NCBI GenBank assembly: GCA_031271975.1
Contig: JAISUR010000047.1
Location: forward strand, 1,362 to 25,361
Source: Propionibacteriaceae bacterium
GTDB taxonomy: Bacteria; Actinomycetota; Actinomycetes; Propionibacteriales; Propionibacteriaceae
Length of the DNA: 24,000 nt
Direction of reading: 5' to 3'
The notes under the pieces are model-generated. The model made no database searches and was not told where the DNA came from. It saw only the letters and a program-made list of their open reading frames with translations. The first letter of the stretch is position 1; each line of letters opens with the position of its first letter. Shown here piece by piece: positions 8,281 to 21,096 of this stretch. The position numbers and the translations under genes are program-made.

Positions 8281-9444
8281 ATGATAAAGCGTCTTGGTGC
8301 ATGTCTGGCAGGCTTGCTGCTGCTGGCCGGATGCGTGAAGATGGAGTTTTCCATCGACATTCACTCCGATGACGACATCGACATTTCGATGTTGATGGCC
8401 ATCGACAAGGACTACGCCGACGAATTCGGCGACATGTGTGACCTGGCGAAGTCGAGCGCCGGCTCGTCCGGAGACTTCACCGCGGAAGAGTTCACCGACG
8501 ACGACTACAAGGGCTGCCGGGTGTTCGGTAAGACGAACCTGGATTCAGCGGGCACGATGGTCACGCACACCGGCGGCAAGTACTACTTCAGCTCGGGCGC
8601 TTCCGACTCCGCTTACGGCAGCGACCTGGACGCCTCCATGTTCACCGGGTTCAAGTTCGAGGTCACATTTCCCGGCCCTGTGGAATCATGTTCCGGGAAT
8701 GGCGTCATCTCGGGGAACACGTGCACCTGGACGGACGCCGCTGACCTGATCAACGGCATGGAAGCAGTGGGTGCGGACAGCGGCGGCCCGCTGGCTGGCG
8801 GCGGAGGAATCCCCTGGGGCATCATCGCGGCGGTCATCGGCGTCATCATCGTGGGCGCGGTCGTGGCCGTGGTCGTGATCAGGATGCGCAAGAAGCCCGC
8901 GGCGCAGCCGGTGTACCCACAGCCCGGCTATTACCAGCCCGGCTACGACCAACAGGCGTATCAACAACAGGCGTATCCGCAGCAGTATTCCCAGCCGCCC
9001 AACGCGCAGCAGCCCTACGCCCAGCCGCCCGCCGCGCAACAGCCATATGGCCAGCAGGCATATGGCCAGCAGCAGCCGTACCAACAGCCGCAGCAGTATT
9101 CCCAGCCGCCCAACGTGCAGCAGCCCTACGCCCAGCAGCCCTACGCCCAGCAGGCATACCAACCGCCTGCCAGCCCACAGCCTGGCTACGTCGCGCAGGC
9201 CGGGGCCGGAGAGCAATCTTGGGCTCCGCAGGCCGGATACCAAGTACCGGCGCAGGGATACCAGGCCCAGCCCGCCGCCGAGCAGCCGGCGCCGTTCGCC
9301 CCGCCTGCCCAGGCAGCCGCCCAGACTCCCGCATGGCAACCCCCAGATTCCCAAATCCCGTCCGCCGAAGTGCCGCTGAACCCGGCATCCGAGGCGGCGC
9401 CGGGCCCGGAACAGCCTGGTGACGGCCCAGCCGCACAGCAATGA
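8281..9444 (+). CDS. membrane-anchored lipoprotein (LppM-like extracytoplasmic domain) with C-terminal TM helix and a long Q/P/Y-rich low-complexity tail
   Basis: ATG 8281 gives MIKRLGACLAGLLLLAGC, a signal peptide with lipobox LLAGC. AAAGGG lies 5 nt upstream. An acidic about 170-aa ectodomain is followed by a TM helix (IPWGIIAAVIGVIIVGAVVAVVVI), the stop-transfer RMRKK, then about 180 aa of PQQ/QQPY/QQAY repeats. The LppM resemblance is from memory of the Mycobacterium LppM architecture (lipobox + domain + C-terminal TM), not from a search. Confidence 0.75.
   Translation: MIKRLGACLAGLLLLAGCVKMEFSIDIHSDDDIDISMLMAIDKDYADEFGDMCDLAKSSAGSSGDFTAEEFTDDDYKGCRVFGKTNLDSAGTMVTHTGGKYYFSSGASDSAYGSDLDASMFTGFKFEVTFPGPVESCSGNGVISGNTCTWTDAADLINGMEAVGADSGGPLAGGGGIPWGIIAAVIGVIIVGAVVAVVVIRMRKKPAAQPVYPQPGYYQPGYDQQAYQQQAYPQQYSQPPNAQQPYAQPPAAQQPYGQQAYGQQQPYQQPQQYSQPPNVQQPYAQQPYAQQAYQPPASPQPGYVAQAGAGEQSWAPQAGYQVPAQGYQAQPAAEQPAPFAPPAQAAAQTPAWQPPDSQIPSAEVPLNPASEAAPGPEQPGDGPAAQQ
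8977..9136 (+). repeat. in-frame 49-bp direct repeat (two copies, 1 mismatch, offset 111 bp) inside the Q/P/Y-rich tail coding region
   Basis: 8977-9025 and 9088-9136 both read ccgcagcagtattcccagccgcccaacg[c/t]gcagcagccctacgcccagc, encoding PQQYSQPPN[A/V]QQPYAQ. Shorter degenerate cagcagcc/ctacgcccag units surround them. Confidence 0.9.
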
Positions 9445-10298
9445 CGGCTATTTCCGACGGCGCTTGGGGCACGCTGCTGCAAGCCGCCGGGCTCGCGCCG
9501 GGCACCTGCCCTGAACTGTGGAACGTGGAGCAGCCCGACAAGGTGTCTGAAGTGGCCGCCGCCTACGTCGCCGCCGGTTCGGACATGATCGAAACCAACA
9601 GCTTCGGCGGTACCCGTTTCAAGCTGGCCCACTACGGCTTGGCTGATCGCGTCGCGGAGTTGAACCGCGCCGCCGCCGAGCTTTCCCGGGCTGCCGCCGG
9701 TGGCCGCAAAGTGCTCGGTTCGATCGGGCCGACGGGCGTCGGATACCTGCTGGCGGTTGAGGAAGTCACCGAGGAAGAGCTGTACGCCGCGTTCGCCGAG
9801 CAGGCGGTCGCTTTGGCAGAGGGCGGCGCCGACATGGCCTGCATCGAGACCATGACCGGCATTGGCGAGGCGCGGGCGGCGATTCGCGCCGTCAAACAGA
9901 ACACGTCCTTGGAGATCATTTCGACGTTCACCTTCGATCGCACGATCACGGGCGACTATCGCACCATGGAAGGCGTCACCCCCGAGCAGGCCGCAGAGGC
10001 AGCCCTGGAAGCCGGGGCCCAAGTGGTGGGTGCCAACTGCGGCAACGGCATGGAACGCATGGTCGAGATCACCGCCCGCATCCGGGCGGCGTTCCCCGAC
10101 GCGCCGATCCTCGTCCACGCCAACGCGGGCCTTCCCGTGAACGTCAACGGCACCGATGTCTTCCCAGAATCGCCGGCCGACATGGCCGCCCAAGTCCCCG
10201 CGCTGGTGGCCGCCGGCGCCGGCATAATCGGCGGCTGCTGCGGCACCACGCCCGCCCACATCTCGGCCATCGCCGCCACCTGTCGCTCGATGGCGTAG
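9441..10298 (+). CDS. stand-alone homocysteine S-methyltransferase domain protein (Pfam S-methyl_trans type; MetH N-terminal module / MmuM-like)
   Basis: N-terminus ISDGAWGTLLQ, IETNSFGGT, and the three Zn-ligand cysteines in GANCGNG and GGCCGTTPAHI. 285 aa, with no pterin-binding or B12 domain following. ATG 9441 overlaps the upstream stop (ATGA). Confidence 0.85.
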   Translation: MTAISDGAWGTLLQAAGLAPGTCPELWNVEQPDKVSEVAAAYVAAGSDMIETNSFGGTRFKLAHYGLADRVAELNRAAAELSRAAAGGRKVLGSIGPTGVGYLLAVEEVTEEELYAAFAEQAVALAEGGADMACIETMTGIGEARAAIRAVKQNTSLEIISTFTFDRTITGDYRTMEGVTPEQAAEAALEAGAQVVGANCGNGMERMVEITARIRAAFPDAPILVHANAGLPVNVNGTDVFPESPADMAAQVPALVAAGAGIIGGCCGTTPAHISAIAATCRSMA

Positions 10299-10437: not shown

Positions 10438-10514
10438 TGGTAGCGGGGGCAGGATTTGAACCTGCGGCCTCTGGGTTATGAGCCCAGCGAGCTACCGAAC
10501 TGCTCCACCCCGCG
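10438..10514 (-). tRNA. initiator tRNA-Met (tRNA-fMet, anticodon CAT), CCA encoded
   Basis: The reverse complement reads CGCGGGGTGGAGCAGTTCGGTAGCTCGCTGGGCTCATAACCCAGAGGCCGCAGGTTCAAATCCTGCCCCCGCTACCA. It folds as a full cloverleaf. Three consecutive G:C pairs close the anticodon stem (GGG/CCC) and positions 1:72 are unpaired (C1:U72), both initiator hallmarks. It is near-identical in layout to E. coli and mycobacterial tRNA-fMet. Confidence 0.97.
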
Positions 10515-10589: not shown

Positions 10590-11474
10590 TCAGATCCGTT
10601 CGATGATGTCGGTGAACGCCGCGCGGATGATGTCGCCGGTGGACACCTCGTTGTGCGAGGTCAGGGTCACAACGGCTTGTTTCCCGGGCGCGACGATCGA
10701 GAACTGGCCGTACATTCCGTCGGCGCGGAAGGTGCCCGGGGTCGTGTTCAGCCAAACCTGGTAGCCGTAGCCCACGTTCGATTCCGCGTCGTCGAAGTGG
10801 CGGACTGGGTCGATGACGTCGGTGTGCATCGCGGCCACGTAGCCAGACGGCACGATTTCCCGGTCTTCCCAGATTCCCTCTTGCAGCAGCAGGCGGCCCA
10901 ACTTGGCCAGCTCGCTGGTGCGCAACTGCAGCCCGTAGCCGCCCAGGGAATGCCCGCGCGGGCAGGTGTTCCACCAGGGGTTGTAGATGCCCAAGGGGCG
11001 GAAAAGCCGCGGCTTCAGATAGTCGACGAGCACCTGGCCGCTGGTCGCTTCCACGACACGGCCGAGCATGTAGGTACAGGCGTTCGCATAGAAGAAGCGC
11101 GTGTCCGGCGGACGTGTCTGCTCGCCGGCGAAGAAGAGCTGCGCCCAGTCTGTGTCTTCGAGGACGGCGGGGTCGGTCTCTTGGAAGAACTCGTAGTCTT
11201 TGCCGGCGGCCATCCGCAGCAAATCGCGGACGGTTATTGCCGCGCTGCCCTCGGCGGCGGCTTCCGCGAACTCGGGGAAGAAGCCGAGCACTTTGTCGGA
11301 AAGCTCGAAACGGCCCTCGGCGACGGCCATGCCCACCGCGACGGAGGTGAAAGTCTTGCTCGCGGACCAGATGTGCACACGGTCGTCAGAGCGGAAACGA
11401 TGCTCGATGTCGCCCTGTCCGGCTTGGTGCAAATGCACGCCATACACGCCCAAGTTACGCTCGGCGCAGGTCAT
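10590..11474 (-). CDS. beta-lactamase-fold serine hydrolase (PF00144-like; esterase / D-aminopeptidase / PBP-related), substrate unknown
   Basis: SxxK nucleophile motif (WSASKTFTSVAVGMAV) and YxN motif (FFYANACTY), with overall length and pattern matching class-C-like serine hydrolases. The ORF track extends to 11852, but the first about 126 aa are R/P-rich junk. The first ATG is 11474 (MTCAERNLGVYGVHL). A GTG at 11507 (VLTPSVFDSFRM...) is an equally plausible start, and no clear SD precedes either. Confidence 0.8.
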   Translation of the reverse strand: MTCAERNLGVYGVHLHQAGQGDIEHRFRSDDRVHIWSASKTFTSVAVGMAVAEGRFELSDKVLGFFPEFAEAAAEGSAAITVRDLLRMAAGKDYEFFQETDPAVLEDTDWAQLFFAGEQTRPPDTRFFYANACTYMLGRVVEATSGQVLVDYLKPRLFRPLGIYNPWWNTCPRGHSLGGYGLQLRTSELAKLGRLLLQEGIWEDREIVPSGYVAAMHTDVIDPVRHFDDAESNVGYGYQVWLNTTPGTFRADGMYGQFSIVAPGKQAVVTLTSHNEVSTGDIIRAAFTDIIERI

Positions 11475-11677: not shown

Positions 11678-12142
11678 ATGTCTTTTCGGATCGAGTACCA
11701 CGACGCCTTCGCATTGTGCGGCTTCGGCGCTCAGATGACGCTGCGCGAGTATGGCTACAACAACAACCGCGCGCGACTGCTCGCCGACTTGCAGGCCGCG
11801 GGACACCTGGAAACGCTGGACGCGCTGGGCGGCGACGCATTCTGGGCGGCATGGTTCTGCGGCGATTCGCCCGATGAGATCTATTGGGTTATATGCCGCT
11901 CGGTGGCGGCCACGCAGGTGCCGCCGGCCGGGGCCGTGGTGCGCGAAGTGGCGGCGCACAACTATCTGGTTTTCGAGCACGAACCGGGCGACGACCGGGA
12001 AGTCGCTTGGACTGCCGACTACTACAAGGCTGGCACGATAGGGGTGAAGCTCAACTACAACCGCGAGGCTTGGATGGAGTATTACCCGGACGGATACGAC
12101 GGGCGCTACGAGTTGTGGATGTCGCTGGCCAGCGACCACTAG
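11678..12142 (+). CDS. GyrI-like / AraC-effector-binding-domain small-molecule binding protein (no DNA-binding domain)
   Basis: ATG 11678 is preceded by AGGAG 7 nt upstream. 154 aa, MSFRIEYHDAFALCGFG...YLVFEH...MEYYPDG...YELWMSL matches the two-repeat beta-alpha-beta-beta GyrI-like/SOUL-type pattern as I remember it. The upstream 16 codons in the ORF track were dropped. Confidence 0.6.
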   Translation: MSFRIEYHDAFALCGFGAQMTLREYGYNNNRARLLADLQAAGHLETLDALGGDAFWAAWFCGDSPDEIYWVICRSVAATQVPPAGAVVREVAAHNYLVFEHEPGDDREVAWTADYYKAGTIGVKLNYNREAWMEYYPDGYDGRYELWMSLASDH

Positions 12143-12918
12143 CGAGCCGGCCGGATGCGGTCCCACACCTTGTCCAACGCCTGCGACCATGCCGAAATCG
12201 CGCCGGTGTCCCGCATGTACGTCACCGCGAGTTCGTTCAGGCCGCCCGGTGTCATCTCGCGCCAGTGCCCGGCCAACTCGTCCGGCGTCAGCGTTTTCGC
12301 TTTGTAGAGCAGGGCTTCGAAGAACGACGCCGTGTAACCAGCCGCCGCCTCGGGTGGGAAGCCCTTCGCTTCCGCCCAGCCGACGACATCGCCCAGCATT
12401 GCGAAATAGGCGCTCATCAGAGCCGTGATCGCTGTGAACATGTCCATCGTGGGCTCGTCGGCGGCGGGCACGATTTGGCCCAGCGAGCCAAAGACCGCGG
12501 TCACTTCGGGATCGTCGGGAAAGACGGCCAGCGGGCCGACGCGGTGGGCGACGAAAGGCAGCGGCACCATCCGCGTCAACGTGGCCGGAGCGGCCAGGGA
12601 GCGCAATTCGGCCAAGGTGAAATCCGAGATGAAGCTCAGCGCCCGCTGGCCGTCGCGAAACCGCAGCGCGCCGATGACCTCGCGGGCGATGCGGGGCAGC
12701 ACCGCCAGCATCACCCAGTCAGAACCGTCGACGACCTCTTGGTTGGACGCGCAAACCCGGACGTTGGGGAACTTGGCCGCCAGGGCCGCCGCCCGTGCGG
12801 CGTTGCGCGGCGACAACAGCACTTCGGCCGCCGCGCCGTATTGGGCCAAGACGCCGCGTGCGAACGCCTCGTTGATGACGCCCACGCCGATGAAACCGAT
12901 CCGCATGAGGACAATCAT
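12139..12918 (-). CDS. pyrroline-5-carboxylate reductase family protein (ProC-like NAD(P)H imine reductase), last gene of the GRE operon
   Basis: N-terminal Rossmann MRIGFIGVGVINEAFARGVL, ...DWVMLAVLP (the ProC VKP position), and a C-terminal dimerisation region containing MTPGGLNELAV (ProC TPGGTT motif position). ATG 12918 (MIVLMRIGF...) or ATG 12906 (MRIGFIGVG...) are possible starts. It begins 12-24 nt after the activase stop. Confidence 0.8.
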   Translation of the reverse strand: MIVLMRIGFIGVGVINEAFARGVLAQYGAAAEVLLSPRNAARAAALAAKFPNVRVCASNQEVVDGSDWVMLAVLPRIAREVIGALRFRDGQRALSFISDFTLAELRSLAAPATLTRMVPLPFVAHRVGPLAVFPDDPEVTAVFGSLGQIVPAADEPTMDMFTAITALMSAYFAMLGDVVGWAEAKGFPPEAAAGYTASFFEALLYKAKTLTPDELAGHWREMTPGGLNELAVTYMRDTGAISAWSQALDKVWDRIRPAR

Positions 12919-12930
12919 GGCGGATCTGGC

Positions 12931-13734
12931 TCAGCGGGCAAGTACCGTCTTCACTTCCGGAACGGCGTTGTTGAGATACTCCAAACGGTCTGCCAGGTGC
13001 GCGGCGCTGGGAGGTTCGAGCGCGTCCAAGGCGTAGTCGAGGCCCAAGTTGCGGTAGGCGGCGCGCCCCAGGCGGTGGTAGGGGAGTAGTTCCAACTGGT
13101 CGAGTTGGGGGATCTCCTTGCAGATCAAGGCCGTCCGGAAGAGGTTTAGGTCATCGTCGTTCACACCCGGCAACAGCGGGACCCGCGCGGTGATGGTTCC
13201 GGCGAAATCCGATGCGGCCACCGCTCGCAAGTTCTCCAATATGGCCGAGTTCGCCACGCCCGTCCAGCGGCGGTGCTCCGCGTCTTCGACGTGCTTGATG
13301 TCCACCAACAGGTGGTCGGTCCAGGCGAGCACGCGTGCGACGTTGGGCCGCGATCCGAAAAGCGTCGTCTCTATCGCCGTATGGATGCCGTGCTCTTTGG
13401 TGCCGCGCAACACCGCGGCCGTGAAAGCCGACTGCGCCAGCGGTTCGCCCCCGCTCACGGTGACTCCGCCGCCAGAGTGGAAGTAGAACACTTCGTCTTT
13501 CAGCACTTCATCCACCACTTCGTGGGCCGTCATCACCCGCCCATACACCTGTTGGTCCAAGCCGGTTTGCGGCAACGGTGATTGCGACTCGGGCGTGGAA
13601 CACCACTGGCACGCCAACGGGCACCCTTTCAGGAACACTACGGTGCGGATGCCCGGGCCGTCGTGGATGGACGCCCGTTCGATGCGCAGGACCATGCCCG
13701 GCGTGCGGGCCAACTCACCCAACGCTGATACCAC
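12931..13734 (-). CDS. glycyl-radical enzyme activating enzyme (radical SAM), minimal PflA-like architecture
   Basis: DGPGIRTVVFLKGCPLACQWCSTPES is the CX3CX2C radical-SAM cluster motif in the GRE-activase context. GGGVTVSGGEPL is the SAM-binding GGE motif, and LELLPYHRLG lies at the C-terminus. GTG 13734 overlaps the GRE end by 20 nt. An alternative ATG at 13695 (MVLRIERASIHDGPG) would leave a 19-nt gap. Confidence 0.9.
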   Translation of the reverse strand: MVSALGELARTPGMVLRIERASIHDGPGIRTVVFLKGCPLACQWCSTPESQSPLPQTGLDQQVYGRVMTAHEVVDEVLKDEVFYFHSGGGVTVSGGEPLAQSAFTAAVLRGTKEHGIHTAIETTLFGSRPNVARVLAWTDHLLVDIKHVEDAEHRRWTGVANSAILENLRAVAASDFAGTITARVPLLPGVNDDDLNLFRTALICKEIPQLDQLELLPYHRLGRAAYRNLGLDYALDALEPPSAAHLADRLEYLNNAVPEVKTVLAR

Positions 13735-16090
13735 GCTGCGTGGTGCGCCCGATGATCTCGTCCTGCACGTCTTTGCCCAATTCGGTGAAATACGCGGTGT
13801 AGCCGGCCACGCGGATCAGCAGGCCCTTGTACAGTTCTGGGCGCCGCTGCGCGTCCAGGAGCGTGTCGCGGTCGATCACGTTGAACTGCACATGGAACAC
13901 GCCCAGGGTGCACATCGATTTCAGCAGCGCCATCATTTCGGCGATCCCGGACTCGGTGGCCAGGAATTCCGGCTCCACCTTCATGTTCAACAGCGTGCCC
14001 TGCACGAAGCGGTCGTGCGGGATGCGGGAGACGGACTTGAGCACCGCGGACGGACCCTCGCGATCCGTGCCGCCGCTGGGTGAGACGCCGTCAGCCAGCG
14101 GTTTCCAGGCATTGCGCCCCGACGGCAGGGCGCCCACTTCCAATCCGAACGGCGTGTTGCCGGAAACCGGCAGGATGCCCGGCGTCATGGTGCCGAACTT
14201 GGAGCGGTAGCTCTCAATCTCGTCGGCGATAAAGGTGTAAATCTCTCCGGCGATGTCGTCGACCCAACCCGCGTCGTTGCCGTACTTGGGGGCGGCGAGC
14301 AACTGGCCCTGAATGTCTTCGGCCCCGGCGAAATCGTCCGCCAACGCCCGCAGCAACTCCGCCATGGAAACCGCGCCTTGCTCGAATACGACCTGTTTGA
14401 CAGCCGCGAGCGAATTCACCAAGTCGGCGATCCCGATCAGGATCACGCCGTTTCCGGTGTTGTATTTCGCCCCGCCGCGCGAATAGTCCAGGGCCCGCTC
14501 GACGCATTCCGCGAACGACAGCGACAACGCCGGCACTGGCCTGTCCATGCAGACCTCGTCGATGACGTGGCTGCCCTTGACCACCGCGCGCACCGCATAG
14601 CGCAGTTGTTCTTTGACCGCGGCCAGGAAGTCGTCGTACGTGGCGAATTCCGCCGGGTCGCCCGTCTCGGCGGCGATGCGGCGGCCCGACTTGCGGTTGA
14701 CGCCGTTGGTCAGCGCCAATTCCACGATCCCGCCCAGGTTGATGTCGGCCAACGCCGTATAGTGCCGCAGCCGTCCTTCGAGGTTGGTCTCCACGCAGCC
14801 GCACGGGTTCCAGTCGTAGGCTTCGCGCAGCGGGATGCCCTTGTTCATCAGCATCCGGATGCCCGTCTCGTCGTTGTGGAACGCCGGGAAGCCAGTGCCC
14901 AGCCGGATCAACTCGACCACCTTGCGCAGGAACGCCGTCGGGTTCTTTGCCATGTTGTAGCGCACCGACAGCGACGGCTGGTAGAGCTGCACGTCCATCG
15001 TGGCTTGCAGGATCAGGTATGACAGCTCGTTGACCGCGTCGCGCCCAGCCAGGTCTACGCCGCCCACGCAGACATTCTGGAACATCGGATACCCCGCGGC
15101 GAACTCCGCGGTCACGGCGTCCTGGAACAGGCAGGTTTCGGAGAACTTGATCCACAGGCAGTCCAGCAACTCCTGCGCGCCTTCCGGCGTCAACCGCCCG
15201 GCGGCGAGGTCTGCCGCGTAGAACGGATAGAGGTATTGGTCCATGCGGCCCGGGTTGTAGCTGGCCGCGTTCTGCTCCATGATGATCGCGCATTGGTACA
15301 GGTACAGCGCCTGCAGCGCCTCGTGGAAGGTGCGCGCGGGGTGTTCGGGTGCCCAACGGCAGTTCGCGGCGATGGTGCGCAATTCCGCCGCGCGCGCCGG
15401 ATCGGGCGTCGCGGCTGCCTGGCGTTCGGCTTCTTCGGCGTAACGGTGTGCCAGCGTGCGGATGCCGTCGGCGGCGATCAATATCGACTGGAGGTAGTAA
15501 TCCTTCTCATAGTCGCCAGGCCGCGTCAGGTCCAATTCGGCGCGCCGGGCGCGCGCTTTCGCGCAGATTCCCTCCAGGCCTTCGGTGAGGATGCGGCGGT
15601 AGCCGGCGGTGGTTTCGCCCCAGCCGCGCACGGCCTTGCGGTTGATATAGACCATGCCCGTGTCGCGCAGCGCCCGGGTGTCGTCCGGAATCTGCGCCAG
15701 CCACGCTTCATAGGTGGACTTGCCCTTCCAATAGGGGCGGATCACGTCGCAAAAGGCCCGCTTGTCTTCCGGGCGCAAGCTGAACGGGTCGTAGCGCCGC
15801 TCGCCGATGGTGTCCAACTCCGCGTCGAGCACTGACCAGCAGGTGTCGGCGCACAGGATGCCGCCGCGCGTCTTGGAACCGGGGGAGCCGACGATCAGCT
15901 CGTCGGGGTAAATCGTGACGTCTTTGCGCTCGCATTGCAGTCGGAAGCCCTTGGCTTTGCGCAGCGCCAGCGGCTCGCCTTCGGTGGATTGGAAGCTCTC
16001 GGTGAGCAGCAGGGCGTTTTCCAGGTCCATCTCCGGCCGGGTGCCGATCACGCGGTCCTTCAGGCGGTTGATCCGCTGGAGGTAGTCCAT
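13715..16090 (-). CDS. glycyl radical enzyme, PFL2 / dehydratase-lyase class (PflD/YbiW/HypD-like), substrate not assignable from sequence alone
   Basis: 791 aa. The C-terminal glycyl radical motif is LLIRVAGYTAYF (Gly763). The thiyl-loop is NPCGCVETN (Cys432 followed by Glu434, the GCVE signature of GRE eliminases, not the Cys-Cys pair of pyruvate formate-lyase). The N-terminus RINRLKDRV...TEGEPLALRKAKG closely parallels E. coli PflD as I recall it. A strong SD GGGAGGTG lies 4 nt upstream of ATG 16090. Confidence 0.92.
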   Translation of the reverse strand: MDYLQRINRLKDRVIGTRPEMDLENALLLTESFQSTEGEPLALRKAKGFRLQCERKDVTIYPDELIVGSPGSKTRGGILCADTCWSVLDAELDTIGERRYDPFSLRPEDKRAFCDVIRPYWKGKSTYEAWLAQIPDDTRALRDTGMVYINRKAVRGWGETTAGYRRILTEGLEGICAKARARRAELDLTRPGDYEKDYYLQSILIAADGIRTLAHRYAEEAERQAAATPDPARAAELRTIAANCRWAPEHPARTFHEALQALYLYQCAIIMEQNAASYNPGRMDQYLYPFYAADLAAGRLTPEGAQELLDCLWIKFSETCLFQDAVTAEFAAGYPMFQNVCVGGVDLAGRDAVNELSYLILQATMDVQLYQPSLSVRYNMAKNPTAFLRKVVELIRLGTGFPAFHNDETGIRMLMNKGIPLREAYDWNPCGCVETNLEGRLRHYTALADINLGGIVELALTNGVNRKSGRRIAAETGDPAEFATYDDFLAAVKEQLRYAVRAVVKGSHVIDEVCMDRPVPALSLSFAECVERALDYSRGGAKYNTGNGVILIGIADLVNSLAAVKQVVFEQGAVSMAELLRALADDFAGAEDIQGQLLAAPKYGNDAGWVDDIAGEIYTFIADEIESYRSKFGTMTPGILPVSGNTPFGLEVGALPSGRNAWKPLADGVSPSGGTDREGPSAVLKSVSRIPHDRFVQGTLLNMKVEPEFLATESGIAEMMALLKSMCTLGVFHVQFNVIDRDTLLDAQRRPELYKGLLIRVAGYTAYFTELGKDVQDEIIGRTTQRGISVG

Positions 16091-16124
16091 TCTTCACCTC
16101 CCATGACAGGGTTTCCTAATCATA
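16091..16124 (-). promoter_or_regulatory. GRE operon 5' leader: Shine-Dalgarno GGGAGGTG (16102-16095) and a candidate -10 TATGAT (16124-16119)
   Basis: Both elements were read directly on the minus strand in the 112-nt divergent intergenic region. I found no convincing -35 element, so the promoter call is weak while the SD call is strong. Confidence 0.4.
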
Positions 16125-16202
16125 TTGCCTTACCTGGCCCGCAAATTCCTAGGCGGCGAGTCCGAACCGCTAGACTGCTGGGCGGAATGCGGCGTTGAGG
16201 AA

Positions 16203-17735
16203 ATGGATCACCCGTTGAAGAAGAACAGAATAGCAAGCCTCGCCACTGTTGCCCTCTGCTTGGCGTTGGCCGCCTGTCAACCCACCCCAACCGAGTCCGG
16301 AATCGCGGACAGCCCGAGTGCGCCCGAAAAGGCGGTGCTCACAGTGGGGGCCACGCTGGAACCTGCCAGCATGGATCCGTTCCACAACACGGCCGCATCC
16401 ATCCCACAAGTGCTGCTTTACAACGTTTACGAGACGCTGGTGAAGGTCGATTCCACCGGCGAGATCCGGCCGTTGCTGGCGCAGAACTGGGAAGTGTCGG
16501 CGGACCGCACGCAATACACCTTCTTCCTCAATCCGGCTGCGAAGTTCGCCAGCGGGGAGCCGGTCGACGCGGCTGCCGTGGTTGCGAACATCGAGCGCTT
16601 GCAGGCCGACGTGGAGCTCACCGGCACGCTCAAATTCCAACTCGAAGTCATCGAGTCCGCCGCGGCGATCGACTCGCAACAGGTCGTCATCAAGTTGAAG
16701 CGGCCCTCGTTGATGTGGCTCTACGACATGAGTTCCACGCTGGGCATGATCGTCGACCCAGCCGCGGGCGACATCTCCAACGAGTCTGCGGGCTCTGGCC
16801 CGTACGCCGTCGCGGGGCACGCCATCGGGCAATCCGTGACGCTCGCCAAGAACGAGTCGTACTGGGGCACGCCGGGGCGGTTCGACGAGGTTGTCTTCCG
16901 CTACTTCGGCGACCCGAACGCTATGAACGCGTCCCTGCTGGGCGGCGAGTTGGACATCATCTCGAACTTGCAAGCTCCCGACGCGCTGCCGCAGTTCTCC
17001 GACACGTCGCGTTTCACCGTCACCCGGGGCACCACGAACGGCGAGGTCGTACTCGGCCTCAACCACCAAACCGAGGCGCTGGCCAATGCCGACGTGCGCA
17101 AGGCCCTCACCATGGCGATCGACCGGAAGCTGCTGCTGTCGACCGTCTGGAACAACGAGGGCACGCTGATCGGCTCCATGGCCGTGCCAACCGATCCGTG
17201 GTACGAGGATCTGTCGGACACCGTGCCGTACGATCCTGAGGCCGCCAAAGCGCTGCTGAAAGAGGCCGGCTACGAAAAGGGCCTCAAGCTTCGGCTGCGG
17301 GTGCCAGTCGTGCCGTACGCCACCAAGGCGGCGCAGGTCGTCTACTCGCAGTTGCGCGACGTAGGCGTGGAAGCCACCATCGAGGAGTTGGACTTCGACC
17401 GCTGGGTCAGCGAGGTGTTGGGCGAGGGCGCCTATGACCTCACCATCGTCGCCCACGTCGAGGCACGCGATCTGGGCAAGTTCGCCGACCCGACGTACTA
17501 CTTGCACAACGACGACCCGACTTTCGCCCAGCTCTATGCCGCCGCCGACGCCGCGGACACCGAGCAGGAAGCCATATCGCTGATGAAACAGGCCTGCCGC
17601 AGGCTCGCGGATGAGGCTGCTGCGATCTGGCTGTGGTCGATGCCGAACCTCGTGATCACCAAGGCGGGTGTGACGGGAGTCGAGGAGAACGCGACGACCC
17701 TGAGCTTCGACCTGTCCAACATCGCTGTCGGGTGA
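16203..17735 (+). CDS. ABC transporter substrate-binding lipoprotein, family 5 (peptide/opine/nickel type)
   Basis: ATG 16203 gives MDHPLKKNRIASLATVALCLALAACQP (signal peptide plus lipobox LAAC). The body carries the SBP_bac_5 pattern (VLLYNVYETLVKVDSTGEIRPLLAQNWEVS...YTFFLNPAAKFASGEPVDA). The upstream 26 codons in the ORF track were dropped. Confidence 0.88.
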   Translation: MDHPLKKNRIASLATVALCLALAACQPTPTESGIADSPSAPEKAVLTVGATLEPASMDPFHNTAASIPQVLLYNVYETLVKVDSTGEIRPLLAQNWEVSADRTQYTFFLNPAAKFASGEPVDAAAVVANIERLQADVELTGTLKFQLEVIESAAAIDSQQVVIKLKRPSLMWLYDMSSTLGMIVDPAAGDISNESAGSGPYAVAGHAIGQSVTLAKNESYWGTPGRFDEVVFRYFGDPNAMNASLLGGELDIISNLQAPDALPQFSDTSRFTVTRGTTNGEVVLGLNHQTEALANADVRKALTMAIDRKLLLSTVWNNEGTLIGSMAVPTDPWYEDLSDTVPYDPEAAKALLKEAGYEKGLKLRLRVPVVPYATKAAQVVYSQLRDVGVEATIEELDFDRWVSEVLGEGAYDLTIVAHVEARDLGKFADPTYYLHNDDPTFAQLYAAADAADTEQEAISLMKQACRRLADEAAAIWLWSMPNLVITKAGVTGVEENATTLSFDLSNIAVG

Positions 17736-17736
17736 G

Positions 17737-18681
17737 ATGGCTGCCGCCGCGCGCAAACTGGGCGTCTTCGCGCTCAGCCTGCTGCTCGCCTCGGTATTGA
17801 TCTTCGCCGTATTGAACGCGCTGCCGGGCTCGGTCGCGCACACGATCCTCGGTGTGGACGCCACGCCGGAGGCCGTTGCGGCGTTGGAGGCGCGGCTCGG
17901 CCTCGACCGGCCCTGGCCGGTGCGCTACGTCGAATGGATGGCGGGAATGTTGACCGGCGATTTCGGTACCTCCCCGCTGAACGGGCATTCCGTCTTGGAG
18001 TTGATCGGCCCCGGCATCCCCGTCACTGCATGGTTGGTTGGGCTGGGCATCATCGGGTCCATCCTCATCGCTTTGCCGCTGGGCATGGTGGCAGCATTGC
18101 GGCGCCGCAGCTGGGAGGGCGTCGCCATTTCGGCAGCCGCGGAGTTGGGCATGGCCGTGCCCGTCTTTTGGGGCGGCATCATCTTGGCGCTGGTGTTCGC
18201 CATCGAGTTGCGCTGGCTGCCGCCCAACGGATACGTGCCGTTCACAACGGACGCGGGGGAGTGGCTGCGCCACATGGTCTTGCCCGTCGGCACGTTGGCC
18301 CTCGTCCAGGCGGCGGTGCTCACGCGCTATGTCCGCTCGGCGTTCATCGAGGTGCTGACGCAGGACTACTACCGGACAGCCCGCGCGTTGGGGTGGACGC
18401 CGTTGCGGGCGCTGTTTCGCCACGGGGTGCGCAACGCCGCCATGTCGCTGGTTACCGTAGTCGGGCTGCAACTGTCGGCATCCCTGGTGGGGGCAATCGT
18501 CGTGGAGCGGGTGTTCAACCTCCACGGCCTGGGTTCCATCCTGATCGACAACGTCTTCCAGCGCGACATCGCCGTGGTGCAAGCAACCGTGATGTTGCTG
18601 GTGTTGGCCGTGCTCGTCATCAACCTGGTGGTGGATCTGTCCTACGGGCTCATCGATCCGCGGCAGCGAGGCCGGCGATGA
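17737..18681 (+). CDS. ABC transporter permease (DppB/OppB-like)
   Basis: 314 aa, starting 1 nt after the SBP stop. The N-terminal TM and periplasmic loop (PGSVAHTILG...ALEARLGLDRPWPVRYVEWM) and the EAA-type loop region (YYRTARALGW) are typical of family-5 system permeases. Confidence 0.88.
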   Translation: MAAAARKLGVFALSLLLASVLIFAVLNALPGSVAHTILGVDATPEAVAALEARLGLDRPWPVRYVEWMAGMLTGDFGTSPLNGHSVLELIGPGIPVTAWLVGLGIIGSILIALPLGMVAALRRRSWEGVAISAAAELGMAVPVFWGGIILALVFAIELRWLPPNGYVPFTTDAGEWLRHMVLPVGTLALVQAAVLTRYVRSAFIEVLTQDYYRTARALGWTPLRALFRHGVRNAAMSLVTVVGLQLSASLVGAIVVERVFNLHGLGSILIDNVFQRDIAVVQATVMLLVLAVLVINLVVDLSYGLIDPRQRGRR

Positions 18682-19496
18682 GAAAGATACAGCTGTATAC
18701 AGGTCTGGCCCTGATCGCCTTGGTGATCGCCGCCGGCTTGGTTTCGCTGGTTTGGACGCCGTTCGACCCGATCCGGGTGACGGCCGACCGACTGCTCGAT
18801 CCGGGCTGGCCGCATTTGCTGGGCACTGACGCGATGGGCATCGATATTATTTCGCGGCTGCTCATCGGGGCCCGGTATTGCCTGATCGTCGGCATCATCT
18901 CAGTCTCGCTGGCGGCCATCGCCGGTGTGCCGATGGGCGTGCTCGCGGGTCTTTCGGGGGCGCGGAGCGGCTGGGTGGACGAGGTCGTCATGCGGGTCAA
19001 TGACGTGGTGTACGCCTTCCCGGCTTTGCTGTTGGCGATGCTGCTCGCCGCCGTGGCCGGGGCTTCCACGGTGACGGCGATGGTGGCGATCGGCGTTGCG
19101 ACAATTCCTGCCTTCGCGCGCGTCGCGCGAGCGGCCACGCTGGAGGTGGCGGCGAGCGATTTCGTGCTCGCGGCCCGGGCCGCCGGGACCACCAAGTGGT
19201 CGATAGCTGTGCGCCACGTATTCCCGAACATCGCCCCGGTGGTGGGTGTGCAGGCGTCCGTCGGCTTCGCCATGGCAATCCTGGCTGAGGCGGCGCTGAG
19301 CTACCTGGGTCTGGGTACCCCGCGCGGGACACCGACCTGGGGCGGGATGCTGCGCGACGCCCAAGATGTCTGGTACACCCAGCCGGTGCAGGCCTTGTGG
19401 CCCGGGCTGGCGATCGCCTTGGCCGTGCTCGGTTTCAACCTGCTGGGCGACGGCTTGCGCGATGTCCTCGACCCGCGTCTGCGGGAGGTGCGATGA
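18678..19496 (+). CDS. ABC transporter permease (DppC/OppC-like)
   Basis: ATG 18678 overlaps the upstream stop (ATGA). MRKIQLYTGLALIALVIAAGLVSLVWTPFDP, HLLGTDAMGIDIISRL and FVLAARAAGT (EAA loop) fit DppC-type permeases. The long upstream extension in ORF 17934..19496 is an out-of-frame overlap of the previous gene and was rejected. Confidence 0.88.
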   Translation: MRKIQLYTGLALIALVIAAGLVSLVWTPFDPIRVTADRLLDPGWPHLLGTDAMGIDIISRLLIGARYCLIVGIISVSLAAIAGVPMGVLAGLSGARSGWVDEVVMRVNDVVYAFPALLLAMLLAAVAGASTVTAMVAIGVATIPAFARVARAATLEVAASDFVLAARAAGTTKWSIAVRHVFPNIAPVVGVQASVGFAMAILAEAALSYLGLGTPRGTPTWGGMLRDAQDVWYTQPVQALWPGLAIALAVLGFNLLGDGLRDVLDPRLREVR

Positions 19497-20332
19497 GCCT
19501 GCTTGAAGTCTCTGGCCTGACGGTGCGTTTCGGCCGCCGCCAGGTGGTCGCCATCGACGACGTGTCGTTCACGCTCGGCGAGCAGGAACGCCTGGGTATC
19601 ATCGGCGAATCCGGCTCCGGCAAGACGGTCACGGCACTCGCCCTGATGGGCCTGTTGCCGGAGAACGCGGCCGTGACGGGCTCCGTGCGGGTGCGCGGGC
19701 AGGAGACCTTGGGCCTGGGCGAGGCCGAATATGCGAAACTGCGCGGCGACACGTTGTCCATGGTCTTCCAGGAGCCGATGACCGCGCTCGACCCGACGAT
19801 GCGGGTGGGCCGCCAGGTGGCGGAAGTCCTGCTGCTGCACGCCCGGAACACGTCCGGCAACTCCCGCCAACGCGTGATCGAGATGCTGCGCCGCGTGGGC
19901 CTCGCGGACGCGGAACGCATAGCCGACTCGTATCCGCACCAACTCTCCGGGGGTCAGCGACAGCGCGTTTGCGTGGCCATGGCTCTGATCAACTCGCCCG
20001 ACTTGGTCATCTGCGACGAGCCGACGACGGCGCTCGACGTGACTGTTCAGGCCCGCGTGCTCAAAGTCCTGGACGAGATGCTGGACGCCGAACACACCGC
20101 GTGCCTGTTCATCAGCCATGACCTTGCGGTCGTGTCGCAGGTGTGCTCCCATGTGCTCGTCATGCTGGACGGACGCATCGTGGAATCCGGCCCCATACAC
20201 CGCATTTTCGCGACGCCGTCTCATCCGTATACGAAGGGCTTGGTGGCCACCGCGCAACTGGACAAAGTGGCTCCCGGGTCGCCTCTTCCCACTGTCGCCG
20301 ATTTCTACACCCGGGCGGGGGCGACGAGATGA
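19493..20332 (+). CDS. ABC transporter ATP-binding protein (DppD/OppD-like)
   Basis: ATG 19493 overlaps the upstream stop (ATGA). Walker A GESGSGKT, signature LSGGQRQR, Walker B LVICDEPTTALD, H-loop ISHDL, and the C-terminal HPYTKGL motif of the oligopeptide-type ATPases. Confidence 0.9.
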   Translation: MSLLEVSGLTVRFGRRQVVAIDDVSFTLGEQERLGIIGESGSGKTVTALALMGLLPENAAVTGSVRVRGQETLGLGEAEYAKLRGDTLSMVFQEPMTALDPTMRVGRQVAEVLLLHARNTSGNSRQRVIEMLRRVGLADAERIADSYPHQLSGGQRQRVCVAMALINSPDLVICDEPTTALDVTVQARVLKVLDEMLDAEHTACLFISHDLAVVSQVCSHVLVMLDGRIVESGPIHRIFATPSHPYTKGLVATAQLDKVAPGSPLPTVADFYTRAGATR

Positions 20333-21096
20333 CTGCGATCCTGCGGGCGGCCGGGCTGAGCCGTGCTTTTGGCTCTTTCGAAGCCCTGCGCGGCATCGAT
20401 CTGGAGGTGTGCAAAGGCCAGCGGCTGGGCATCGTGGGCGAATCCGGCTCCGGGAAGACCACGCTGATCAAGCTGCTCGCCGCCTTGGACCAGCCCACCG
20501 CGGGCCAATTGTGGTTCGCCGGCCGGGAAATCACCGGCCTGCCGGAACGCGGCTTGGGTTTTCTGCGATCGTCGCTGCAGATCGTCTTCCAAGACCCCCG
20601 TTCGTCATTGAACCCCCGCATGAAAGTGGGGGATATCGTCACCGAGCCACTGCGTTCCAAACTGGTCCGCCGCGAGTTGCAGGGCGTCGACCGCAAAGAG
20701 CGCCTGCGGGAAGTGTTGGCGGCCGTGGATCTGCCCGCAGATTCCGGCGACCGCTATCCGCACGAGTTTTCGGGTGGCCAGCGGCAGCGCATCGCCATCG
20801 CGCGTGCTTTGGCACCCAAACCGGAGGTGTTGATCGCCGACGAGCCGGTCTCGGCACTGGACGTTTCCGTGCGTGCCCAGGTGATAAACCTGCTCGCAGA
20901 CTTGGTGGACAAGCAGGGCCTGACGCTGCTGTTCGTCAGCCACGACTTGATGGTCGTGCGCCACTTGTGCGACTCGGTAGTCGTGATGCAATCGGGCCAG
21001 ATTGTCGAGCGCGGCACGACCGCCGCGGTGTTTTCGGCTCCGCGGACCGACTACACGGCCTCGCTGTGGGCCGCCGTCCCGCGCATCAAAGTCTGA
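20329..21096 (+). CDS. ABC transporter ATP-binding protein (DppF/OppF-like)
   Basis: ATG 20329 overlaps the upstream stop (ATGA). Walker A GESGSGKT, signature FSGGQRQR, Walker B VLIADEPVSALD, H-loop VSHDL. The C-terminal motif is degenerate (TDYTASL). Confidence 0.9.
   Translation: MTAILRAAGLSRAFGSFEALRGIDLEVCKGQRLGIVGESGSGKTTLIKLLAALDQPTAGQLWFAGREITGLPERGLGFLRSSLQIVFQDPRSSLNPRMKVGDIVTEPLRSKLVRRELQGVDRKERLREVLAAVDLPADSGDRYPHEFSGGQRQRIAIARALAPKPEVLIADEPVSALDVSVRAQVINLLADLVDKQGLTLLFVSHDLMVVRHLCDSVVVMQSGQIVERGTTAAVFSAPRTDYTASLWAAVPRIKV

Follow-up and report, generated by a model that had tools for sequence, protein, structure and literature searches.

The subject of this study is a 24,000-nucleotide stretch of contig JAISUR010000047.1 from a Propionibacteriaceae bacterium (assembly GCA_031271975.1), referred to below as the window, and within it a three-gene minus-strand operon, which we read, with a probability of roughly 0.7 and judging from the sequences of its products, as a module of the HpyG family for the anaerobic dehydration of a hydroxyproline-type compound. 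The operon consists of a glycyl radical enzyme (GRE) of the HpyG-like 1,2-eliminase type (13715-16090, 791 aa; profile and structure-database matches), a GRE-activating radical S-adenosylmethionine (SAM) enzyme (12931-13695, 254 aa; CX3CX2C motif, TIGR02494) and a PRK06476-like NAD(P)H imine reductase with the fold of delta-1-pyrroline-5-carboxylate (P5C) reductase (12139-12918, 259 aa; TPGG loop, fold model). Only 19 nt separate the GRE from the activase and 12 nt the activase from the reductase, and GC at the third codon position is 0.80-0.87 in the reading frames of the trio. The GRE begins at an ATG preceded by the ribosome-binding site GGGAGGTG. The open reading frame of the activase extends over 12931-13734, with a GTG at 13734; the ATG at 13695 is the likelier start, and the gene call made independently for an identical public contig also uses it. 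An alternative reductase start at 12906 would give 255 aa. The original prediction for this DNA had proposed such a near-abutting operon of a GRE eliminase, its activase and a P5C-reductase-family enzyme, and profiles, motifs and a fold model bear out both the layout and the module, while its interpretation as a whole is supported only in part.

The GRE scores 662 bits against the Pfam PFL-like family and 104 bits against Gly_radical, and it carries the thiyl loop NPCGCVETN, with Cys432 and Glu434 as the CXE pair, as well as the glycyl loop IRVAGYTAY with Gly763. It passes the 1,2-eliminase subfamily model (PFL2/glycerol dehydratase, TIGR01774) with 709 bits against a cut-off of 678 and fails every equivalog model, including those for HypD (NF043068, 590 bits against 1100) and CutC (677 against 1050). 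Among solved structures, 8ID1 (HpyG) is the top match with 1154 bits, followed by 8IOF (HpzG) with 886, CutC with 632 at best, PflD with 489, HypD with 480 and YbiW with 467. The BLASTP alignment with HpyG, a protein of Intestinibacter bartlettii, runs over 783 residues at 63% identity and 0 gaps; in alignments the identity is 50% to HpzG and 35% to HypD (6VXC). By these sequence measures the GRE is a close relative of HpyG and separate from HypD. Both 8ID1 and 8IOF are N-methyl-4-hydroxyproline dehydratases, in which Cys435 is placed close to C5 and Glu437 at the hydroxyl that leaves (review PMC13450708). An identity as CutC was rejected on score (about 630 bits against the structures), and the resemblance to the PflD/YbiW type suggested earlier does not survive the comparison, since PflD and YbiW fall below CutC and far below HpyG.

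A genuine HypD, which in Clostridioides difficile dehydrates trans-4-hydroxy-L-proline and feeds ProC, would share with the window GRE its size of about 790 aa, the CXE and glycyl loops, and the logic of the gene trio, in which the pyrroline carboxylate formed when a GRE dehydrates hydroxyproline is reduced by a P5C reductase. This identity is nevertheless extremely improbable, given the low identity, an equivalog score little more than half the cut-off, and the replacement of the residues on which HypD depends. We transferred the active-site residues of HypD (Backman et al. 2020) by alignment to 13 pocket positions of the window GRE. In HypD, His160, Asp278 and Asp339 are essential and Ser334, Tyr450 and Thr645 are carboxylate ligands; Ser334 is likewise essential, and its position lines the pocket in all GRE eliminases (Backman et al. 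2020). In the window GRE, HypD His160, Asp278, Lys326, Ser334, Asp339, Tyr450 and Thr645 are replaced by Glu159, Ala276, Gln, Ala331, Met336, Asp449 and Val642, respectively. The doubt already voiced in the original prediction, that the enzyme may not be simply HypD, is thus supported, and the GRE lies beside the HpyG family instead of inside the validated HypD cluster. That prediction also knew of no characterised pathway besides that of HypD in which a GRE is joined to a P5C reductase, a premise that no longer stands: HpyG and HpzG are closer relatives, and the HpyG locus of I. bartlettii itself carries a P5C reductase. Its suggestion that the module would catalyse a cyclic-imine-forming dehydration of another hydroxy-imino acid remains the best reading.

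At 12 of the 13 mapped pocket positions, which were mapped through HypD and not through the ligand contacts of 8ID1, the window GRE has the same residue as HpyG, including Phe337, which is Thr in HpzG. Its conserved pocket segments likewise track HpyG rather than HpzG: HpzG, a member of the same eliminase subfamily whose CXE and Gly loops are those of the window GRE, reads GYNMTVQV, GRTMPAVY and SGNVPIGQS where the window GRE reads GYPMFQNV, GTGFPAFH and SGNTPFGLE, and most pocket segments differ in this way. The hydrophobic Ile450 and Ile453 of HpzG, on the other hand, match Leu447 and Ile450 of the window GRE in character. The differences from HpyG are Ala331 for Ser334, Leu447 for Tyr450, Ile550 for Asp553, Ser468 for Tyr471 and Pro680 for Met683. 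Leu447 stands two residues ahead of an invariant Asp, the residue aligned to HypD Tyr450, and therefore probably lies on the same strand face.

These differences are not peculiar to the window GRE. In a neighbour-joining tree of 179 GRE sequences, which is distance-based and carries no bootstrap, a clade A of 53 sequences that includes HpyG is sister to a clade B of 124 sequences that includes the window GRE, with HpzG outside both. Fourteen positions discriminate the two clades, and the window GRE shows the clade-B signature Ala331, Leu447, Ser468, Ile550 and Pro680. Clade B is large and spans Firmicutes, Desulfobacterota, Actinobacteria and other phyla; we found no characterised member of it, and nothing useful in the literature on GREs for other hydroxyproline isomers or on betonicine/MttB links. 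A third HpyG-like group, with the signature Ser/Phe/Thr/Ile/Pro (SFTIP), was seen on human-gut metagenome contigs (L155-L158, L161, L163-L167); the three loci whose activase was typed have the short form, and every contig that extends far enough has a 271-aa P5C reductase some 1.75 kb downstream.

Gene neighbourhoods were counted once per unique locus, for loci flanked by 3 kb or more of sequence in both directions, with a P5C reductase scored within 7 kb. The HpyG locus of I. bartlettii has a canonical ProC-type P5C reductase, an HTH/cupin regulator and a long activase; the locus of E. maltosivorans adds an MttB methyltransferase and a major facilitator superfamily (MFS) transporter. A P5C reductase occurs in 6 and MttB in 4 of the 12 clade-A loci. 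Around clade-B GREs, a genuine HypD orthologue (1107 bits to 6VXC) adjoins in 10 of 51 loci, so that the clade-B GRE and HypD are distinct enzymes. The 51 loci also hold a proline-racemase-family gene in 10 cases (most of these genes having the Cys/Thr pair that marks trans-3-hydroxyproline dehydratase), OCD/mu-crystallin in 5, Liv-type binding proteins in 15, AraC regulators in 15 and YbaK/ProX editing domains in 7, and the neighbours include free amino-acid transporters of the Liv, TRAP, SNF and AGCS types. Because of these neighbouring genes, the HpyG-like GRE family is tied to hydroxyproline metabolism. Free-standing aminoacyl-tRNA editing domains of the YbaK/ProX type stand beside clade-B GREs at L018 (13180-13737), L022 (16731-17267) and five further loci; such neighbours would fit a substrate that is a proline analogue mischargeable onto tRNA-Pro. 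Loci of Desulfosporosinus and Syntrophomonadaceae combine a clade-B GRE with a genuine HypD orthologue and the activase belonging to it, a proline-racemase-family gene with the Cys/Thr pair and a Liv-type ATP-binding cassette (ABC) system, some of them with an OCD/mu-crystallin gene or an ornithine aminotransferase as well, and look like islands for several hydroxyproline isomers. The loci concerned are L030, L039, L042, L050, L053, L054, L058, L066, L068, L069, L076, L087 and L092.

Several observations weigh against reading the trio as an HpyG-family module. The window GRE lies outside the clade that holds the characterised HpyG, and the Ala331 site, the most telling of the discriminating positions, is Ala in all 124 clade-B sequences but Ser in HypD, in HpzG and in all 53 sequences of clade A. 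Tyr450 and Asp553 are likewise replaced in clade B, by Leu and Ile. A P5C reductase is found in only 4 of the 51 clade-B loci and MttB in none. At 50-57% identity, the closest homologues of the window reductase are solitary genes in four actinobacterial contigs, and in a Bifidobacteriaceae relative no reductase follows the activase within 310 nt downstream. The ABC importer that adjoins the operon in the window, described below, is absent upstream of the GRE in the relatives L009 (83%) and L006.

The first group of these points bears on how far the assignment to HpyG may be carried. That the window GRE is a strict functional orthologue of HpyG would agree with the ungapped 63% identity, with the agreement at 12 of the 13 mapped pocket positions, those separating HpyG from HpzG included, and with the presence of a dedicated reductase in the operon. 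We consider it rather unlikely, however, in view of the sister-clade placement with its fixed Ser334-to-Ala, Tyr450-to-Leu and Asp553-to-Ile changes, the lack of MttB-type methyltransferases in clade-B loci as against a third of clade A, and clade-B neighbours that are genes for non-methylated hydroxyprolines and, in seven loci, YbaK/ProX-type editing genes. Because the context of clade B differs from that of clade A, we do not file the window GRE as an HpyG orthologue. The two loci themselves are alike in grouping a GRE, an activase and a P5C-reductase-family gene, and in the Cys and Gly loops of the GRE. They differ in that the activase of the HpyG locus (313 aa) has a ferredoxin domain whereas that of the window has none, in that the HpyG-locus reductase is of the canonical ProC type and only about 21% identical to the PRK06476-like one of the window, and in that the HTH/cupin regulator, MFS transporter and MttB of the HpyG-type context give way in the window to an ABC importer.

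The second group of points concerns the reductase. Its profile matches are Pfam F420_oxidored and NF005063 (PRK06476; 232 bits against a cut-off of 254), and a canonical ProC was rejected (TIGR00112, 70.7 bits against 196.75). The AlphaFold model, with a pLDDT (predicted local distance difference test score) of 95.7, finds P5C reductases for all of its top 50 PDB fold matches (TM 0.79-0.84), and the sequence contains the substrate loop MTPGGLNE, with T219, P220, G221 and G222 conserved. As far as the modelled fold indicates, the enzyme is within the P5C reductase superfamily. Its lineage there is PRK06476-like and divergent. Identity to the GRE-linked gene of Formimonas is 45% and to that of I. 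bartlettii about 21%, and the enzyme gives no significant BLAST alignment with that of L007. P5C-reductase-superfamily genes of three lineages, about 21% identical to one another, adjoin HpyG-family GREs: the I. bartlettii/E. maltosivorans type, the L007 type and the window/Formimonas type. That three lineages have come to stand beside one GRE family argues for a real coupling between GRE and reductase.

One may instead suppose that the adjacency is incidental, the GRE and activase genes having been inserted beside a resident, possibly housekeeping actinobacterial P5CR-like gene, with the GRE product handled elsewhere. The stand-alone actinobacterial homologues, which are nearer to the window reductase than the GRE-linked ones of Firmicutes (42-45% identity), would agree with this scenario, as would the rarity of reductase linkage in clade B. 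We regard it as improbable all the same: the reductase follows the activase on the same strand after a mere 12 nt and a convergent gene closes the operon behind it, the PRK06476-like lineage adjoins clade-B GREs also in Formimonas, L017, L023, L037, L092 and L140, and the protein is not a canonical ProC (71 bits against a cut-off of 197).

The motif CPLACQWC of the activase is of the CX3CX2C form, and the enzyme scores 253 bits on TIGR02494 (cut-off 174), falling over two stretches in the PFLE_PFLC group of eliminase-type activases; on the PflA equivalog it stays below the cut-off (177 against 232). The ferredoxin-like insert with its two CX2CX2CX3C motifs is absent: the 80 residues that follow the SAM motif contain no Cys, and some 50 aa of the long activases of I. 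bartlettii, Formimonas and L007 are cleanly missing from it in the alignment, so that the earlier observation of a missing insert is upheld. According to a review, nearly all activases other than those of pyruvate formate-lyase and ribonucleotide reductase retain the ferredoxin domain. PflA, the classic GRE activase without such a domain, resembles the window activase in having a single radical-SAM domain of about 250 aa and no auxiliary-cluster insert, but the window activase groups by sequence with the eliminase-type enzymes and looks like one of these with the insert deleted. Short activases occur in 13 of 42 typed clade-B loci, scattered over four or more separate parts of the activase tree, and this scatter suggests that the auxiliary-cluster domain was lost repeatedly within the HpyG-like GRE family. 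Ferredoxin-less activases were recorded at L014, L018, L028, L031, L033, L034, L038, L049, L055, L057, L062, L071, L074, L079, L083 and L006 and in the window (12931-13695), and activases with a single intact CX2CX2CX3C motif at L043, L063, L064, L072 and L078.

Diverging from the GRE operon on the plus strand is a five-gene family-5 ABC importer (16203-21096), made up of a substrate-binding protein of the Dpp/Opp/Nik type (SBP_bac_5, 16203-17735), putatively part of the system, two permeases (17737-18681 and 18678-19496) and two ATPases (19493-20332 and 20329-21096). The program-called reading frames 17934-19496, 19397-20332 and 20143-21096 overstate three of these genes, whose true starts are at 18678 (permease), 19493 (ATPase 1, preceded by GGGAGGTG) and 20329 (ATPase 2), each overlapping the preceding stop. 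The best solved relatives of the binding protein are 5U4O, AapF, AgaA and NikA, all low-scoring. The 112-bp spacer between the GRE and binding-protein genes (16091-16202) is presumed to hold a shared promoter and the regulation of both sides; no consensus sigma-70 site was found in it. A Lachnospiraceae metagenome-assembled genome (MAG) has, at L074:13343-17084, a clade-B GRE and a short activase, after which come genes for an M20 peptidase and for the binding protein and permease of a family-5 system. Apart from the window, no other locus joins a clade-B GRE to a Dpp/Opp-type importer, and the family-5 system of L074 is distant. The earlier view of the importer as part of the system is founded only on the two being neighbours in the lineage of the window, and a link between them is no more than plausible, since the importer is lacking in the closest relatives and has a single distant parallel.

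The substrate might also lie outside the hydroxyproline isomers altogether, as a hydroxypipecolate or a Hyp-containing peptide brought in by family-5 ABC import. The fixed Ser-to-Ala, Tyr-to-Leu and Asp-to-Ile changes would enlarge the pocket and lower its polarity, and the binding-protein gene beside the GRE, together with the M20 peptidase and family-5 genes of L074, would fit such a substrate. Yet the pocket is otherwise that of HpyG, the other loci have free amino-acid transporters and hydroxyproline enzymes as neighbours, and the nitrogen of a peptide-bound residue is unable to form an imine; we therefore hold this possibility to be very improbable.

Returning to a hydroxyproline-type substrate, we can sketch how the module might work. 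HpyG and HpzG were reportedly described by Jiang et al. in ACS Catal in 2024. The gene identities, the catalytic motifs, the layout of the operon and the nearness to HpyG are direct observations, and each chemical step is inferred from homology to HpyG, HpzG and HypD. The short radical-SAM activase would cleave SAM and place a radical on Gly763 of the GRE. The radical would then move to Cys432, which would take a hydrogen from C5 of a 4-hydroxyproline-type imino acid, with Glu434 binding the 4-hydroxyl; water would be lost and delta-1-pyrroline-5-carboxylate released, N-methylated if the substrate is. The P5C-reductase-fold enzyme, presumably co-transcribed, would use NAD(P)H to convert this product to proline or N-methylproline, and the substrate, or a conjugate of it, may enter through the divergent family-5 importer. 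Because the window GRE belongs to the uncharacterised sister clade, another 4-hydroxyproline isomer or a non-methylated form is about as likely a substrate as that of HpyG. Going one step further, we would venture, at somewhat less than even odds, that the 124 members of clade B are a distinct hydroxy-imino-acid dehydratase with a substrate unlike those of HypD, HpyG and HpzG, served in about a quarter of the loci by a minimal activase that has repeatedly lost its auxiliary Fe-S domain. Candidate substrates are non-methylated cis-4-hydroxyproline, N-methyl-trans-4-hydroxy-L-proline and a hydroxypipecolate.

The surroundings of the operon in the window call for brief comment. Downstream it is closed by a convergent plus-strand gene for a 154-aa protein with a Cass2/GyrI-like effector-binding domain (11678-12142), the 3' ends of this gene and of the reductase gene overlapping by 4 nt; no terminator-like structure was detected between the two, and no link of the Cass2/GyrI-like gene to the GRE system was shown. 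No consensus promoters were found around the operon, terminator-like sites there are at or below chance level, and a search of the window for riboswitches and other known RNAs returned a tRNA only. This tRNA-Met (CAT; 10438-10514, minus strand) lies between genes for a homocysteine S-methyltransferase and a beta-lactamase-fold protein. A tRNA-integrated island was considered and rejected, as a search beyond the GRE/ABC block turned up no att-like direct repeat derived from the tRNA-Met; GC content, checked for the same hypothesis, is uniform along the window. The beta-lactamase-fold gene (10590-11474, minus strand) encodes a 294-aa serine hydrolase, the program-called 420-aa frame being too long, and its match to 3-succinylated cholic acid synthase is partial (178 bits, with the cut-off at 800). 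The stand-alone homocysteine S-methyltransferase-domain protein (9441-10298, plus strand), about 1.8 kb from the operon and with no link to it shown, best matches betaine-homocysteine methyltransferase and the N-terminal half of a bifunctional MTHFR fusion, below the cut-off. The remaining genes of the window are ordinary chromosomal genes.

Lastly, irrespective of the exact substrate, we consider what these findings mean for this family of enzymes. The placement beside the validated HpyG family lowers the novelty of the module, and the logic of a GRE coupled to a P5C reductase is already known from the HpyG locus; the host-collagen connection raised in the original prediction is unsupported for this Propionibacteriaceae MAG. 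The module is now placed in a large sister clade of the clade containing HpyG, throughout which one pocket position, essential in HypD, is altered. Assignment of a substrate to clade B would add to the ways in which anaerobes exploit hydroxyprolines from plants or collagen, whether as electron acceptors or to obtain proline. That activases of a single GRE family have lost the ferredoxin domain time and again offers a natural experiment on the role of that domain.

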